The notes under the pieces were generated by a model. That model was not told the origin of the DNA and did not search any database. It saw only the letters and a program-made list of their open reading frames with translations. The position numbers and the translations under genes were made by a program. From IMG/VR virus record IMGVR_UViG_3300032280_000442, positions 192,001-256,000 of that record: a stretch of DNA of 64,000 nt, one strand, 5' to 3'. How positions within the stretch are numbered: position 1 is the first letter of the stretch; every line of letters begins with the position of its first letter. Below are positions 1 through 7,555 of this stretch, one piece after another. Source of the stretch: a virus. Lineage: Duplodnaviria > Caudoviricetes.

Positions 1-1197
1 TCCAACAGTTTTAGTTGCGGCTAACCCTAAACCTGTTCTATCCCCTAAACTATTAATTGCCGCCGCCACATCTTTTGTTGCACTTAATTGTTCTTTAGCC
101 AAATCCTCCATTGATTTTGGTGCGGTGTTGGCCATTTTCTCAATTGCCGCAACATCATCTTTACTTAATTCAGAAACCGATTTTTGTTGTTCATTACCTT
201 TTTCATCAGTAAATTTAACAGTATATTCCCCATTCGCACCCATTTCTGCCATATTGGCAATCATTTTCTTTTGGTCTTCGGGTACATCCGGAAATGAAAT
301 TTCTTTCATTTTCTTATCTAAATCCGCACTACCTAATGCCATTTTAGCTAAAGTACCACTAGCTAACCCCATAGCCTGTTCAACTTCTCTTAATTGTCGT
401 TTGGCACCCGGCATAATCTCAAAATGCCCATCTTTACCAAGTTGAACAAATTGTTTACTCATTTGAGCAATTTGATTTTGTAACTCAGCAGGGTCATTTT
501 GAGATAAATCCATTAATTTTAATGGGTCTAATAATGCACTCTGAGAAACACCTAATCGTTGCATTGCCGCAGCAACTTCAATAGCGCCTTCAGGATTAAA
601 TACTTTTTCAGCAAACTGTAATGTTTGTGACATATCAATCCTTAAAGATGTTGCTTGTGCCGCCATTTTAGCCAAACCTTCAACACCACCGGCAAAATTA
701 TATTTGTTAAGAGCCTGCATATTATCCAAAACTGTTTTAGAAACCGCTTGAGCATTTACACCCGACTCTCTCGCAACATTAACAACTTTTAACATTTCTC
801 CCGCAGCTTTTCCTGCACCAATACCTGCGTCAGCCATACCACCAACTATTTTACTTGTCTCTTGACCGGTAACTTTCATTGTTGCATATAAATCTTTGGT
901 TGTTTCTTCAGTTAACACAACGTTTCTACCTAATTCTTTAGACGCCTCTTGCTGAATTTTAAGAACATCAACAATATCCCCACCTAATTTTCTTACTGAT
1001 GTCACAGACTCAGCCATACTCATCCTCAATATATCGGACATTTGTTGACCTTGTCCAAACTGTTTGAGCATAGTACTTGCAGCCTCATCAAGTTTTAATA
1101 CTATTTTAGCAATCGATTCAGGATTAAAATTAGAACCAATTGCCTCTCCTAATCCTCTTGTGGTTGAACTATCTTCCGGTGTTACAGGGTCTGCCAT
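1..1197 (-). CDS. Tape measure-like tail protein (5' part; runs off the window's left edge)
   Basis: Not in ORF track. ATG at 1197; frame open to position 1 (MADPVTPEDSSTTRGLGEAIG...FAGGVEGLAKMAAQATSLRIDM...). Ala/Gln/Met-rich helical composition; lies downstream of sheath, tube and chaperone genes. Confidence 0.75.
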   Translation of the reverse strand, partial: MADPVTPEDSSTTRGLGEAIGSNFNPESIAKIVLKLDEAASTMLKQFGQGQQMSDILRMSMAESVTSVRKLGGDIVDVLKIQQEASKELGRNVVLTEETTKDLYATMKVTGQETSKIVGGMADAGIGAGKAAGEMLKVVNVARESGVNAQAVSKTVLDNMQALNKYNFAGGVEGLAKMAAQATSLRIDMSQTLQFAEKVFNPEGAIEVAAAMQRLGVSQSALLDPLKLMDLSQNDPAELQNQIAQMSKQFVQLGKDGHFEIMPGAKRQLREVEQAMGLASGTLAKMALGSADLDKKMKEISFPDVPEDQKKMIANMAEMGANGEYTVKFTDEKGNEQQKSVSELSKDDVAAIEKMANTAPKSMEDLAKEQLSATKDVAAAINSLGDRTGLGLAATKTVG

Positions 1198-1218: not shown

Positions 1219-1260
1219 AATACACCAAACATAGTTTTTAAATCACTAGTTTGGTGTATT
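1219..1260. terminator. Inverted repeat/hairpin between the chaperone region and the tape measure gene
   Basis: AATACACCAAAC (1219-1230) pairs with GTTTGGTGTATT (1249-1260); overlaps the TAG stop of the 1246-1374 ORF. Confidence 0.45.
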
Positions 1261-1374
1261 ATTCTCGATTAGTCTAGTTATTAGGTGTTTTCTAAAATAT
1301 GTTGGCATAGAATGAAAATCCGAATATGATACGTGGATTGATTGAGCCAAATACAAATATTCCTCAATCAACAT
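1246..1374 (-). CDS. Small 42-aa ORF, putative C-terminal (gpT-like / T4 gp51-like) part of the tail assembly chaperone
   Basis: MLIEEYLYLAQSIHVSYSDFHSMPTYFRKHLITRLIENNTPN; in the +1 frame relative to 1385-2140 and open back across that gene's stop codon. Confidence 0.65.
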   Translation of the reverse strand: MLIEEYLYLAQSIHVSYSDFHSMPTYFRKHLITRLIENNTPN

Positions 1375-1384
1375 TTGCCTATGA

Positions 1385-2140
1385 TTAGAAGAAAGGGCGA
1401 AAAAAGTCCACCCCAAAGGCAATCTCGAAAGATACCAATTCTCCTGATGGGGCGATTACACTTCTTTTTAAATCCAATGACGGCTCATTATCTTTTAAAA
1501 ACTTTCTTATGTATTTTGAATCCATAATTGGTAAAGTATCAATAAATAAACTTATTTTTGATTTATCTTGTTCACCATCAATTTCAACAATATGTTTTAG
1601 TAATTTCCAAGTAATTCTTGGAGCTTGTCTACCAGCAGGATATTGGTCAGCCATTTTATCTAACTCAATTGTATCATTAAAAGTTGTTGGTCTTAATTTA
1701 ACCGTAACACCTGTTTTTGGTAATTTAGTAGTAAATGTTCCGTCCTCATCAGGTTTAACTTCAGTTTTTCTAATATTTAATTCGTCTAATAAAATAGTAC
1801 CAACAAATGGTTTATCTGTTGCCGGGTCAATTAAATTTATACTATATTCCGGACCAAATGACGTATTTCTTAAAAATATTAAAATAGCCTCAACATCACC
1901 GTCTAAAAGTTCTTCAGGACGTAAGTCGTGTTCATACAATTTATTTCTTAATAATTTTAATATAATATTTTCACTACTACGACCAGCACCAATTAAATAA
2001 TTCTCGTCATTTGCCGTTAAGTACCCAATCTTAACCGACTTCTTTTTTGATTTGTAAAAAATACCACCTGTAGGTAATTGAACCATATCGTGAGGTAAAT
2101 TAAAATTTTGAGTTGCTGCATCAATTAAATTTTGTTCCAT
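1385..2140 (-). CDS. Tail assembly chaperone / T4 gp26-like baseplate hub assembly protein
   Basis: VQLPTGGIFY, LTANDENYL, LLDGDVEAILIFLR motifs, C-terminal DFFRPFF; located between tube and tape measure genes. Confidence 0.65.
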   Translation of the reverse strand: MEQNLIDAATQNFNLPHDMVQLPTGGIFYKSKKKSVKIGYLTANDENYLIGAGRSSENIILKLLRNKLYEHDLRPEELLDGDVEAILIFLRNTSFGPEYSINLIDPATDKPFVGTILLDELNIRKTEVKPDEDGTFTTKLPKTGVTVKLRPTTFNDTIELDKMADQYPAGRQAPRITWKLLKHIVEIDGEQDKSKISLFIDTLPIMDSKYIRKFLKDNEPSLDLKRSVIAPSGELVSFEIAFGVDFFRPFF

Positions 2141-2190: not shown

Positions 2191-2216
2191 AAAAAACCCA
2201 CTTAAAAGTGGGTTTT
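2191..2216. terminator. Intrinsic terminator-like hairpin (potentially bidirectional)
   Basis: AAAAAACCCACT-TAAA-AGTGGGTTTT. Confidence 0.7.
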
Positions 2217-2421
2217 ATCTAAAATATAATACACATATTTTTTTTTCGACTATTAATTTATTAATATACTCTACTCGAGTCATAAATTCTGTATTAATAT
2301 CCATATGTTCTGTTAAAGCAAGAACTTTTTTATAAAGTCTTGGTTCATTGGTTGAAAACCATTTTTCATTACTTAATGTTGGAGAATTACGAATTTTTTC
2401 AATTGTTATCCCTCGATACAT
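2215..2421 (-). CDS. Small hypothetical protein
   Basis: 68-aa ORF tightly following the tube gene and ending at a terminator hairpin. Confidence 0.45.
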   Translation of the reverse strand: MYRGITIEKIRNSPTLSNEKWFSTNEPRLYKKVLALTEHMDINTEFMTRVEYINKLIVEKKICVLYFR

Positions 2422-3967: not shown

Positions 3968-6900
3968 TTATATATTCTCGAAAGAAGCTCCGGTTGGAGT
4001 AATATAGAACGTAATATCTATAAATTCTAACGATTTGGTTGGTTTGATGTAAATCTTACCAGTCATTTGATTTCTGTCTAAATCAGCCGTATCTGATGAT
4101 ACTGTAACTCGGAAATCATATAAACCTCTGTCTCTTCTGATAGCGTCCAAGATAGGGTTAACCGCGTCTAAGAAGTCTTGTCTTACTTTTTGGTCGTTTT
4201 GTTCAAACAATAATCTTACAGATACTGCTGAAATCAATTTACGAGCTTGAAGTAATAATCTTCTTACATTAATTCTATCAAGAGCAGATTGTGCTACTTG
4301 TAGAGTTTTATTACCCCAAATTACTGTACCAACATCAGAGAAAGTTGCAATTGGATTAATACGTCCTTGATAAAGAGTGTCTCTATCCTCTTGAGTAAGT
4401 TTCTTTCTCGCTTTAACAGCGTTTACAATACCTCTTGTGTAACCTGCCGCCGCGAACCAAGGGAACGCAATGTTATCGGTTAACGCCAAGTTTCTTACAA
4501 CCTCAGCTGTTGGTGGTAAATAGATTTGTGTATTATTAACACTATCTCTAGTTAATACCCAAGGGTAATAAGTTGCTGTGTAGTTAGAGTCAATACCACT
4601 ATCTTCTAAAGTATTTACCGCCTCTTGTGGATAAACTAACTGAGTTGGGTCATAAGTTGGTAAAAGTAAATTACTATCAGCCGTTGTACAAATATACAAT
4701 GAGTCAGCTCTATTAAACTCAATCATTTCAATTGCCTCTTCCACTAAATCAGAGTTATTAGTATAATCAATACCTGGAGTCACAAATAAATTGATATTAA
4801 CTGCCTCAGGATTTGAGAATGTTTGTTGTCCTAATAAGTATGCGTAGTAGTCCGTGTTTGCCCAATCAACACTATTGTTTCCAACAGTAATTTTCTTGAA
4901 TGCACCCCAACCTGTTGCAGTTGGGTATTGAATATCTGAACAAGCCCCATTTAAGTAACCTCTTCGACCTAATTTAAATAAGTCACCATTTGTTCTACGT
5001 TCTGTATAGATATCCCATCCATCAAACCCTCCTTGAACTAATAAAGAGAATTTACGAGAATATATTCTGTAATAAGGACTAGCCTCACTTGAAGGGTCCG
5101 ATGTAAATGTTGCATCACCTACATAATAAGCCGGAGTTCCACTTGTTGTATATGCGTTTGAAATAGTAATACCACTAGCGTTTTTATCCATATGGAAACC
5201 TTTAGTTAACGTTAACCATTCAGCCGCGTCACTATCAATACATAAATTTAATGGTTTTTGTTTTCCTTTATATCGGAAGAAATCAACATCATATCCCGCA
5301 CCGTTTCCTGTAGAAATACCTAAATAAGTTCTACGAACATTATCACCCGGACTTAATGTAGCATCATTACTACCTGAACTTAATCCAAATGGTGGGTCAA
5401 ACACAACTTCACCAGGGTAATCGTATTTAGTTTTATAGATAGGGAATGGAGACCTTGACGAACCATATTGTCTAAATTTAAATCCTTTAAACCCACAAGG
5501 TAATGTATCAATAGGTGCGTCCTCATTCATTTCAACCATAATGTATTTTGAATTCAATGCGTATTCACCATCACTTGTACCAATTTTTTGAGCCACAAAT
5601 GAATTACTATTAGGGTCCATTGTACAATTTGTAAATTTCTCAATAACTACAGGATTATTATCAGTATCGTAGAAATCTCTAACTAACACGTCAAATGTTA
5701 AATTACCAAAAGACATATTTGCGATTGAAATTTTAACTTCTGTGTTAGCAGAATCTCCATCGGAAATAGTTGCAAATCTAAATAAGTCAAATACTTTATT
5801 ACCTCTTACCTCAGAAACAACCCACGGAGATACCGGAGTTTGATATTTTTCTAAATAATAAGCTATTGATGATGAGTTACCACCTGCAGCTCTTGGTAAA
5901 TCCAATAAATTACAATTTAAACCTCGAATATAACCTTTATTGTAACCATAGTTTAATAATGTTTGGAATCTTTCTTCAACAAACAATGGAACTGTAGTTC
6001 TTGGTTTAGCGAAATTTGAAGAACCAAATACTTTAGGTAAATATTTTGAATCCGATTCACTAAATGATGTTTCAAAGAAGAATGTATTACCATCGTAATC
6101 TGTCACATTAAGACCAAATGTTGAATATGGGTTTTTAGCAATATCAGAATATGTTGATGCTGTACAATTAATTGAAACGTCGGTTAATCCTGTTACTTCA
6201 TAAGCAGGTCCATCACTATTGGTACCATAAGTTGCAATACCTCTTGAACGAAGTGTTGCTATAACCATATCATCAAAATCAGTATACGAAACACCTGAAT
6301 ATGTGTAAATTTTACCACTTACCGTACCACTATAACAAGTTGTTAATATTCCCGTATTGCGAGTTCCTGTGTTACCTGTTGTAGAAGGATTACAAGGATT
6401 ATTTATAATTACATTAACTATCCAAGATTGTATATTAGAACCATCCTGAGATGTTAATACGTAAGTTTTAGTTCTCGCTGAAAAGTTTTGAGTAGTTCCT
6501 GTACTTTGTTGTGTAACACCACTAACTGTAACACCTGTTGTACAAGCACTAAATGTAACGGTTAACGCTGTTAATCCTGATGTCGGTGTGTTAGACGGTA
6601 ATACAACATCGATTGTGTTAGTATTATAATTTATACTACCTACAGTGTTTGAAACTGTTGCAGAACTCATAGATAACGAATAGAATGACGCACAATTTGA
6701 TGATGATGTTGTGGCTGTTAAAGTATTTACAACATTATAGAATGAGAAACCACTATATGAACCACTATTATTATCAAATAAAGAATAATACCAAGGGTCA
6801 TTGTTTGCATCCGTATAATCTGCATTAGTTGAACTTACACTATCAACACCATAAACATTAGTTGAGTTTGTGTAACCCGTACTTAACGTATTATAATCAG

Positions 6901-7555
6901 AACCTGAAATTGTTCCGTAATAATTTATAGATGTTGCTGAACTACTTGGTGTTGTAAGAACATTAAACAGTTGTGTTTGAATGTTATCTAAAATTCTTGA
7001 CGTACTACCATTGAAGGTTTCATACGTATCATTAATTTTATTTGATATTAATGGTGGTACGTTAGACACTTGAATTGTTTCAATACCACTATTACAACCT
7101 GTAAAAGTAAATGTAAACGGTGTTATTGTATAACCTGTACATACATTAGCACATAATGCTAAGTCATATGTAAAACCTGAACATTGGAACCCCACTGTTG
7201 ATTTATCTACGTTCGCAATTGTAGTAATAGACCAAGATGGTCCCGCGTCATATCCTGATAATCCCAAAATTCTTGTAACAAACAATTGATTAGATTGTTG
7301 TAAATAAGCCTTTGCGATATACGAAGCTTCATACTTCGGTATTTGTGTATTAATAAACTTTTCAGGGGATGTTCCTCCAAAAAAAGTTGAGAATTCATCG
7401 AAGTTACGTATAAAAATAGGTTCAAAGGCAGGACCTTTTTGTGTCTCACCTACAATACCTAATGTGGTTACACCCACACTCTGTGCTACGAAACTTAAAT
7501 CAACTTCGGAAGTATATACCCCTGGAGATACGAATACTTTGCTGTTTGTTGCCAT
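3968..7555 (-). CDS. Contractile tail sheath protein (T4 gp18-like) with large insertions
   Basis: N-terminal VSPGVYTSEVDLS...GETQKGPAFEP; C-terminal PWFAAAGYTRG, RDTLYQGRINPI, WGNKTLQ, LDRINVRRLL, IKPTKSLEFIDITF. Confidence 0.95.
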   Translation of the reverse strand: MATNSKVFVSPGVYTSEVDLSFVAQSVGVTTLGIVGETQKGPAFEPIFIRNFDEFSTFFGGTSPEKFINTQIPKYEASYIAKAYLQQSNQLFVTRILGLSGYDAGPSWSITTIANVDKSTVGFQCSGFTYDLALCANVCTGYTITPFTFTFTGCNSGIETIQVSNVPPLISNKINDTYETFNGSTSRILDNIQTQLFNVLTTPSSSATSINYYGTISGSDYNTLSTGYTNSTNVYGVDSVSSTNADYTDANNDPWYYSLFDNNSGSYSGFSFYNVVNTLTATTSSSNCASFYSLSMSSATVSNTVGSINYNTNTIDVVLPSNTPTSGLTALTVTFSACTTGVTVSGVTQQSTGTTQNFSARTKTYVLTSQDGSNIQSWIVNVIINNPCNPSTTGNTGTRNTGILTTCYSGTVSGKIYTYSGVSYTDFDDMVIATLRSRGIATYGTNSDGPAYEVTGLTDVSINCTASTYSDIAKNPYSTFGLNVTDYDGNTFFFETSFSESDSKYLPKVFGSSNFAKPRTTVPLFVEERFQTLLNYGYNKGYIRGLNCNLLDLPRAAGGNSSSIAYYLEKYQTPVSPWVVSEVRGNKVFDLFRFATISDGDSANTEVKISIANMSFGNLTFDVLVRDFYDTDNNPVVIEKFTNCTMDPNSNSFVAQKIGTSDGEYALNSKYIMVEMNEDAPIDTLPCGFKGFKFRQYGSSRSPFPIYKTKYDYPGEVVFDPPFGLSSGSNDATLSPGDNVRRTYLGISTGNGAGYDVDFFRYKGKQKPLNLCIDSDAAEWLTLTKGFHMDKNASGITISNAYTTSGTPAYYVGDATFTSDPSSEASPYYRIYSRKFSLLVQGGFDGWDIYTERRTNGDLFKLGRRGYLNGACSDIQYPTATGWGAFKKITVGNNSVDWANTDYYAYLLGQQTFSNPEAVNINLFVTPGIDYTNNSDLVEEAIEMIEFNRADSLYICTTADSNLLLPTYDPTQLVYPQEAVNTLEDSGIDSNYTATYYPWVLTRDSVNNTQIYLPPTAEVVRNLALTDNIAFPWFAAAGYTRGIVNAVKARKKLTQEDRDTLYQGRINPIATFSDVGTVIWGNKTLQVAQSALDRINVRRLLLQARKLISAVSVRLLFEQNDQKVRQDFLDAVNPILDAIRRDRGLYDFRVTVSSDTADLDRNQMTGKIYIKPTKSLEFIDITFYITPTGASFENI

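Follow-up and report, generated by a model that had tools for sequence, protein, structure and literature searches.

Does the tail chaperone gene ahead of a phage tape measure gene end at its own stop codon, or do some ribosomes change frame there and read on into the small open reading frame (ORF) that follows? We studied this question in the window, that is, the whole stretch of 64,000 nt analysed here, which covers positions 192,001-256,000 of the virus record IMGVR_UViG_3300032280_000442 (Caudoviricetes) and in which the genes treated below lie on the minus strand. From its slot, its family and its structural matches, we infer that a 251-aa protein of the T4 gp26/gp51 family is the tail assembly chaperone of this phage. 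An earlier, sequence-only reading had proposed that a +1 ribosomal frameshift extends this protein. Our comparison of related loci indicates that a programmed +1 ribosomal frameshift at UUU_C probably yields a short and a long chaperone. The features on which the argument leans are the following.

2140..1385, minus strand: chaperone gene, short zero-frame product (251-aa ORF; PF12322; stop codon TAA at 1387..1385)
1388..1419, minus strand: interval for the frame change; many relatives have an open +1 frame only from 32 nt ahead of the zero-frame stop
1408..1414, minus strand: G-rich tract GGGGTGG, 5 nt upstream of the putative shifting UUU
1397..1405, minus strand: proposed shift site TTT TTT CGC, codons 246-248; TTT TTT C is invariant in 48 unique relatives
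1249..1398, minus strand: +1-frame extension of 50 codons, made of a 4-codon overlap linker and a 46-codon T-like domain
1372..1374, minus strand: nominal start ATG of the 42-aa ORF, which encodes an internal Met within the extension; not conserved as a start
1246..1248, minus strand: stop codon of the extension, 48 nt ahead of the tape measure ATG

Frame layout and selection on the extension

The 251-aa ORF ends in GGG GTG GAC TTT TTT CGC CCT TTC TTC TAA. The +1 frame reads TTC GCC CTT TCT TCT AAT CAT AGG CAA ATG TTG across this stop and stays open until the stop at 1248..1246, and the -1 frame is closed by a TGA 16 codons past the T-run. Skipping C1399 after codon 247 (TTT, 1402..1400) gives a 297-aa fusion with the junction VDFFALSSNHR; the minus-strand sequence, the open +1 frame and the length of the fusion are as the sequence-only reading had stated them. 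The second frame overlaps the 3' end of the first and lacks a conserved start, which is the layout of a G/GT-type pair. Finding the +1 frame open beyond a stop is nothing unusual in the window, where many neighbouring genes overlap in other frames, and we discounted the length of the open frame as evidence. As alternative frames are often open here, the case rests on comparative evidence. Judged by sequence comparison, four features go beyond chance: the frame layout is conserved, the codons upstream of the ATG carry a coding signature, the codon that follows TTT begins with C, and the arrangement recurs in distant lineages.

A scan of IMG/VR identified 80 relative loci with 76-98% protein identity, some of them on contigs of 272 and 318 kb, which comprise 48 unique sequences. 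All 80 carry a 251-codon ORF, TTTTTTC and a 46-47-codon +1 extension. The sequence-only reading had named three observations that would speak against it, and none of them was made: stops between the shift site and the small ORF are absent from the homologs (0/80), the relative frame is +1 in 80/80 relatives and also in ten further, distant lineages, and an independent start at 1374 is not conserved. In the 48 unique sequences, the extension showed a ratio of nonsynonymous to synonymous variation (pN/pS) of 0.30 in the +1 frame, compared with 0.72 and 1.54 in the other two frames and 0.24 in the chaperone body. By this measure, only the +1 reading of the extension is subject to purifying selection.

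The overlap could still be a by-product of gene packing with a functionless long form, in keeping with the overlapping frames after stops that are common in the window. We consider this scarcely credible in view of the purifying selection, the finding that +1, -1 and standalone extensions are homologous, and the conservation of the extension over >15 lineages.

The small domain could also be made without any recoding, as a separate protein that starts at ATG 1374 or at a +1-frame TTG, or through coupled reinitiation once ribosomes have reached the chaperone stop. The ATG is indeed present here and in the nearest relatives, and the TTG, the sole canonical start codon in the +1 frame of 1388..1419 (context ccT TTG GGg), is conserved in the clade and could start a 56-aa protein. 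However, the column at 1374 holds ATG in only 9/48 unique sequences; another 7/48 have an ATG one codon later, and in the remaining 32/48 there is none (extension codon 4 or 5), the codons found at the 1374 column in place of ATG being ATA, CTA, TTA, GTA, GGT, TTT and CTT. Moreover, the four codons that follow the zero-frame stop and precede ATG 1374 evolve as coding sequence, with Asn/Ser, His/Tyr and Arg/Lys exchanges and an invariant Gln. The Arg/Lys column turns over synonymously (AGA in 26 sequences, CGA in 12, CGG in 4 and AGG in 1, next to AAA in 5). In this genome, starts at ATG 1374 or the TTG may give rise to some free extension peptide, but they cannot explain the family-wide pattern, and as a substitute for recoding we find a separate start improbable.

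The proposed shift site and its nucleotide constraint

Since the +1 frame opens 32 nt before the stop in many relatives, a shift has to fall within CC TTT GGG GTG GAN TTT TTT CGN CCT TTY TTY. Codon 248, which follows the second TTT, is CGC, CGT, CGA or CGG in 46 of the 48 unique sequences and CTC in the other 2, and is never AGA or AGG. These two codons account for 0/46 Arg codons at this position and for 192/240 (80%) at the other Arg columns of the chaperone gene. AGA is the usual Arg codon here, the Arg columns of the extension switch freely between AGA and CGN, and both Leu variants at codon 248 use the rare CTC. The absence of AGA and AGG, together with the choice of CTC for Leu, indicates nucleotide-level selection for the C after UUU, and a C at this position is what the re-pairing of tRNA-Phe from UUU to UUC requires. 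A separate start of the small protein does not predict the missing AGA. Conservation of TTT_CGN, which the sequence-only reading had asked for, was found in part: TTT_C is kept at the nucleotide level, but the element shared by all lineages is UUU followed by a pyrimidine and not CGN. Congruently with a nucleotide-level constraint, synonymous divergence is 0.21 over the last 12 codons versus 0.46 over codons 1-230. CGC is among the rarest codons of the window (4/19,105, or 0.2 per 1000), and an in-frame TTT_CGN occurs once among 47 long ORFs, namely at 1402..1397, so that a UUU_CGN motif with a rare A-site codon is present at the proposed site.

In the mechanism that we propose, most ribosomes would end at the TAA at 1387..1385 and release the short 251-aa form. 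A minority would slip +1 while peptidyl-tRNA-Phe sits on the UUU at 1402..1400 and the A site holds the very rare CGC; tRNA-Phe would re-pair from UUU to UUC, C1399 would be skipped, and a 297-aa long form with a small conserved C-terminal domain would result. The rare A-site CGC may aid the slip in the window clade, and the G-rich tract possibly contributes too. What the comparisons show is the position and family of the gene, the conserved frame layout, the coding signature of the extension, the constraint on UUU_C in the nucleotide sequence and the repeated occurrence in distant lineages; the ribosomal nature of the shift, its +1 direction, its efficiency and the binding partners of the two products are what we infer. 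The lambda gpG/gpGT pair suggests that the body common to both forms would coat the tape measure protein and that the extension would bring in tail tube subunits.

The G-rich tract is itself conserved. Gly codon 243 is GGG in 48/48 sequences, whereas the other conserved Gly columns vary and are mostly GGT, except for codon 233 (GGA in 48/48). GGGGTGG may be a Shine-Dalgarno-like stimulator, or it may be kept for the +1-frame TTG or in some other role. No Shine-Dalgarno sequence precedes the chaperone start (2140) or the tape measure start (1197). Their absence suggests a host that initiates without relying on such pairing, and it complicates the interpretation of the conserved tract ahead of the proposed shift site.

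Three other candidate signals at the site were rejected. A terminator-like hairpin at 1414..1394, formed by GGGGTGGA and TTCGCCCT and pairing the G-rich tract with CGCCCT, has its central pair broken by CGA or CGG and one arm disrupted by CTC in 26-28/48 relatives. A shifty stop at TTC_TAA does not allow +1 re-pairing, and the TTT_TAA variant is present in some relatives only. A prfB-type +1 shift does not fit either: CGC and not a stop occupies the A site, the stop follows four codons later, and the G-rich tract is 5 nt away (~3 nt in prfB). In the search for a stimulatory RNA structure, the single-sequence fold had a z of -1.25.

The same downstream frame would also be reached by a -2 ribosomal slip on the six Us, in which the second UUU moves back two bases onto UUU and UUC is read next, giving a product of 298 aa with one extra Phe. 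The T6 run is invariant in the 48 unique sequences and allows perfect -2 re-pairing. As evidence for the shift site itself we gave this invariance no weight, TTT being the default Phe codon. The selected C is explained by +1 re-pairing and is less clearly needed for a -2 slip, although UUC is also the next codon in that case. The predicted tryptic junction peptide of the long form ends in ...FGVDFFALSSNHR, with two Phe after a +1 slip and three after a -2 slip. A further alternative is that RNA polymerase drops one U of the U6 run and makes a subset of +1-frame mRNA. The homopolymeric T6 lies at the right place for it, but a constraint on the base after the run is not expected, and six residues are short for efficient polymerase slippage. 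The distant lineages bear on both alternatives.

Distant lineages with +1, -1 and standalone forms

Our search identified 11 distant lineages (22-43% identity) in which a homologous +1 extension lies behind an in-frame TTT followed by C or T: SP-15, LIS04, GXN1, HSE3, LR756508, a marine clade, the contigs L100 and L105, immuto, Mel-JY01, and BRock/LuckySocke. Known hosts are Bacillus, Listeria, Streptococcus, Streptomyces, Flavobacterium and Microcystis, the other lineages being from metagenomes, and the gene order of the window is kept in SP-15, LIS04, GXN1, HSE3, immuto, Mel-JY01 and BRock. The two ORFs are left unjoined in all 15 GenBank phage records that we inspected; the first is mostly annotated as baseplate hub or baseplate (in some as hypothetical) and the second, where annotated, as a truncated hypothetical protein. 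The codons at the putative shift sites are as follows.

Bacillus phage SP-15: TTT TTT CAC
Bacillus phage HSE3: TTC TTT CGT
Streptococcus phage GXN1: TTC TTT CGT
Streptomyces phage BRock: CTG TTT CGC
Streptomyces phage LuckySocke: CTG TTT CAG
Flavobacterium phage immuto: AGC TTT CTT
Microcystis phage Mel-JY01: TTT TTT TGG
Huge phage LR756508: AAC TTT CTA
Marine clade, L100 and L105: TTC TTT TGG or TTT TTT TGG
Listeria phage LIS04: TTT TTT AGT (pyrimidine after the first TTT only)

Six phages whose structural genes favour TTC by about 2:1 keep TTT at the shift codon. The extensions are related to one another: the profile of the window clade aligned with that of the other +1 extensions at a probability of 92% (hhalign, E 5.6e-7), and the +1 extensions aligned with the -1 and standalone forms described below at 98.5% (E 2.5e-15).

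Most of the +1 lineages have a run of only T3-T4, which excludes both a -2 slip and RNA polymerase slippage in those lineages. A -2 re-pairing fails at TTC TTT C, CTG TTT C, AAC TTT C and TTC TTT TGG, where a +1 re-pairing works, and the T3 runs of GXN1, HSE3, BRock, LR756508 and immuto are too short to allow a -2 slip at all. We accordingly give the -2 slip little credit in the window clade as well. Polymerase slippage is plausible at the T9 of RsoM2USA and the T7 of XacN1; at the site studied here we regard it as very improbable indeed.

These lineages also speak against a separate start. The marine clade has an open +1 frame only from 20 nt ahead of the stop and no ATG ahead of extension codon 25, so that 24 strongly constrained codons precede any ATG; the extension pN/pS is 0.115-0.142 in this clade. 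One member, L088, has none of the start codons ATG, GTG and TTG ahead of extension codon 25, and codons 1-24 nonetheless show a pN/pS of 0.115 at a pS of 0.76. In BRock, LuckySocke, immuto and L100 no start codon lies ahead of the conserved core. The separate-start explanation can point to LR756511, L098 and L104, in which the homologous domain has its own ATG. In the marine contigs L098 and L104 the extension forms an ORF of its own, which starts with ATG and has a longer N-terminus, and the T-run is lost (TTC TTG and TTC CTT).

A second natural control came from six lineages in which the -1 frame encodes the domain and the corresponding Phe-Phe motif is written as a canonical U_UUU_UUY heptamer or a longer T-run. 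They are RsoM2USA, XacN1, Atu_ph07, Asteriusvirus A4 (Escherichia coli), Vibrio 2.275.O and LR756511 (L113, L115, L116, L117, L118 and L085), that is, jumbo phages of Proteobacteria plus one huge phage (LR756511). Taken together, the two controls make little sense unless the run serves as the recoding site. We also observed that the -1 frameshift candidates at the end of these PF12322 genes are unannotated and that several of the genes do not lie beside a tape measure gene.

The probable chaperone protein and its gene neighbourhood

The 251-aa protein matched PF12322 (T4_baseplate) with 35.7 bits against a cut-off of 24.5, residues 30-222 aligning with positions 10-194 of the 219 in the model, and phrog_150 ('baseplate hub') with an E-value of 1.8e-12. 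T4 gp26 and gp51 are listed as hub assembly chaperones in the T4 literature (PMC3004832). An AlphaFold2 model built from 23 sequences reached a predicted local distance difference test score (pLDDT) of 85 and a predicted template modelling score (pTM) of 0.79. When this model was compared with 48,161 PDB chains, the top matches, over residues ~132-221, were the HK97 tail assembly chaperone 2ob9 (Z 5.5, root-mean-square deviation 3.0 over 73 residues) and the Bacillus subtilis prophage protein YqbN (3klu, Z 5.3), then a Vibrio PLE protein and a protein of phage YuA; the tape measure chaperone ORF12 of lactococcal phage p2 appeared lower in the list. Foldseek gave no PDB match at E 0.001 or better, its best having E 0.28 and a probability of 0.89. 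The model is suggestive of a chaperone fold, which agrees with the gene position. The G/GT-type assignment of the sequence-only reading is supported for the slot and for the recoding; the protein itself belongs to the T4 gp26/gp51 family and is not lambda-G-like. The extension domain matched no annotated family in Pfam or PHROGs, where only phrog_18291 (of unknown function) and chance-level Pfam matches were returned. As a side observation, the two CxxC pairs of the marine clade, T4 gp26/gp51 and LR756508 are replaced here by DPAT (~105-110) and APSG (~228-233); a zinc site was probably lost in this clade.

Besides the T6 invariance with its -2 re-pairing, which is weak evidence, and the ATG at 1374 with its upstream TTG, several points weigh against a programmed +1 shift in a chaperone gene. 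This phage is known from sequence alone. The structural matches of the protein are only middling, with all Z <8. No conserved RNA structure was found downstream of the site, where RNAalifold gave a helix of 6 pairs at -3.5 kcal/mol without covariation. In LIS04 the slip would need to fall on the first TTT. The A-site codon is not rare in HSE3 and GXN1 (CGT) or in LuckySocke (CAG), and such common codons indicate that a hungry codon is no general requirement.

On the minus strand the genes follow one another as sheath, 272-aa ORF, tube, 68-aa ORF, 251-aa ORF, +1-frame ORF and tape measure. The neighbouring features are the following.

7555..3968, minus strand: tail sheath, 1195 aa
2911..2423, minus strand: tail tube protein, gp19-like (phrog_4542, 4.4e-27; PF06841 weak)
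within 2215-2421, minus strand: 68-aa ORF between the tube and chaperone genes
2193..2216, minus strand: terminator-like hairpin between the tube block and the chaperone gene
1..1197, minus strand: 5' part of the tape measure gene, an open-ended ORF running off the window

The tape measure ORF is the positional counterpart of the annotated tape measure genes of SP-15, LIS04, HSE3 and immuto. Its residues ~296-361 are weakly similar to PF12322 and phrog_150 (E ~0.02), which may be noise or a segment shared by chaperone and client. The hairpin at 2193-2216 consists of AAAACCCAC-TTTT-AAGTGGGTTTT followed by a T tail, and an annotated terminator of SP-15 sits at the equivalent position; a terminator here would fit a tube expressed at a high level and a chaperone expressed at a low one. 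The 68-aa ORF seems variable and is absent from five related loci (L008, L015, L030, L033 and L055), in which the gap between tube and chaperone genes is ~105 nt. The sheath is unusually long, and its Ser/Thr/Asn-rich centre probably represents inserted surface domains.

Comparison with known recoding systems

Programmed frameshifting in tail chaperone genes, as in lambda, is textbook knowledge (Xu, Hendrix and Duda 2004; reviewed in PMC5009743), and a -2 chaperone frameshift has been proposed for phage Mu. To our knowledge, +1 programmed frameshifts are rare in bacteria and phages and have no accepted general motif. The UUU_CGN motif for +1 shifts is that of influenza PA-X and the amalgaviruses, and UUU-pyrimidine sites are said to have been found prone to +1 shifts in E. 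coli by Schwartz and Curran in 1997, a study that PMC4914553 cites. At the PA-X site, UCC_UUU_CGU, peptidyl-tRNA-Phe re-pairs from UUU to UUC/UUU before a slow or rare A-site codon, as would be the case here. A bacterial UUU-pyrimidine +1 site is that of the Yersinia YopN-TyeA hybrid (PMC4914553). PA-X and the bacterial sites differ from the present one in translation system and context, the site described here lying four codons before a stop and after a G-rich tract.

The sequence-only reading had inferred a +1 variant of chaperone recoding in this phage lineage. For tail chaperone genes the idea is not new: the TTT-CGC motif had already been proposed for the chaperone genes of the HF1-group haloarchaeal myoviruses and compared there with influenza PA-X (PMC7230728). 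For the chaperone of halovirus HSTV-2, a +1 version has been called very likely (PMC5009743). We verified the HF2 junction as GAG AAG TTT CGC AGA TAG. As in the window, the two chaperone coding sequences of this group stand in a +1 relation and TTT-CGC lies near the stop of the first. In contrast, the hosts are archaeal and the first coding sequence encodes a 156-aa acidic protein with no PF12322 match; the proposal is sequence-based there too. The HF2 extension aligned only weakly with that of the window (hhalign, E 0.034). A literature search found no description of the gp26/gp51 family as a recoded chaperone, of the generality of UUU followed by a pyrimidine across bacterial hosts, or of a single homologous site at which +1, -1, split and duplicated solutions alternate.

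Finally, we compared the locus with T4. According to a review, G-T frameshifting is conserved in long-tailed phages 'except T4' (PMC5009743). T4 gp26 and gp51 matched PF12322 at 8.8e-64 (residues 1-206) and 3.9e-52 (residues 1-201 of 249), respectively. A comparison of the single gp26 sequence with the family alignment was colinear but reached only E 0.11, and we took membership from the Pfam model instead. gp51 consists of the PF12322 body and a tail of ~45 aa, and precomputed Pfam calls place PF28602 in gp51 homologs. An alignment of gp51 tails matched the profile of the -1 and standalone extensions in register (hhalign 77%, E 2e-5), matched that of the +1 extensions weakly (E 0.017), and gave no match to that of the window clade. 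Gene 26 has no extension and does not lie beside the tape measure gene. Unlike in the window, genes 26 and 51 of T4 (L086 3803-5229) are separate, divergently transcribed paralogs, away from the tape measure gene 29 and without a frameshift. T4 may thus make its short and long chaperones from these two paralogous genes, with a link to the window that is transitive only. We lean towards the wider view that PF12322 is the chaperone family of T4-type, jumbo and many other myoviruses, and that its short/long pair is universal. The pair would be made by a +1 slip at UUU followed by a pyrimidine in at least 11 lineages, which come from metagenomes or infect Bacillota, Actinomycetota, Bacteroidota and Cyanobacteria, by a -1 slip at U_UUU_UUY in jumbo phages of Proteobacteria, by a separate small ORF in a few cases and by genes 26 and 51 in T4.

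If this is true, T4 would no longer be an exception to the G/GT rule, the widespread 'baseplate hub' annotation would be corrected, and no larger natural class of +1 frameshift sites would be known from bacterial viruses, its direction switching at one conserved Phe-Phe motif. UUU followed by a pyrimidine, kept across unrelated hosts, offers a testable +1 motif, and the +1, -1, split and duplicated solutions at one homologous site are a natural experiment on the evolution of recoding signals. A close model is lambda gpG/gpGT, in which, as proposed here, a short and a long product share an N-terminal body and the downstream frame has no start of its own; chaperones of this type are also what the structural model matches best. 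The two differ in the shift, which would be +1 at UUU_C here and is -1 at a heptamer in lambda, and in the protein, which here is a PF12322 member of ~250 aa with two domains and a ~46-aa extension, compared with ~140 aa for the lambda-type chaperone. The comparison would link genes 26 and 51 of T4, long-unexplained 'hub assembly' factors, to the lambda G/GT paradigm.

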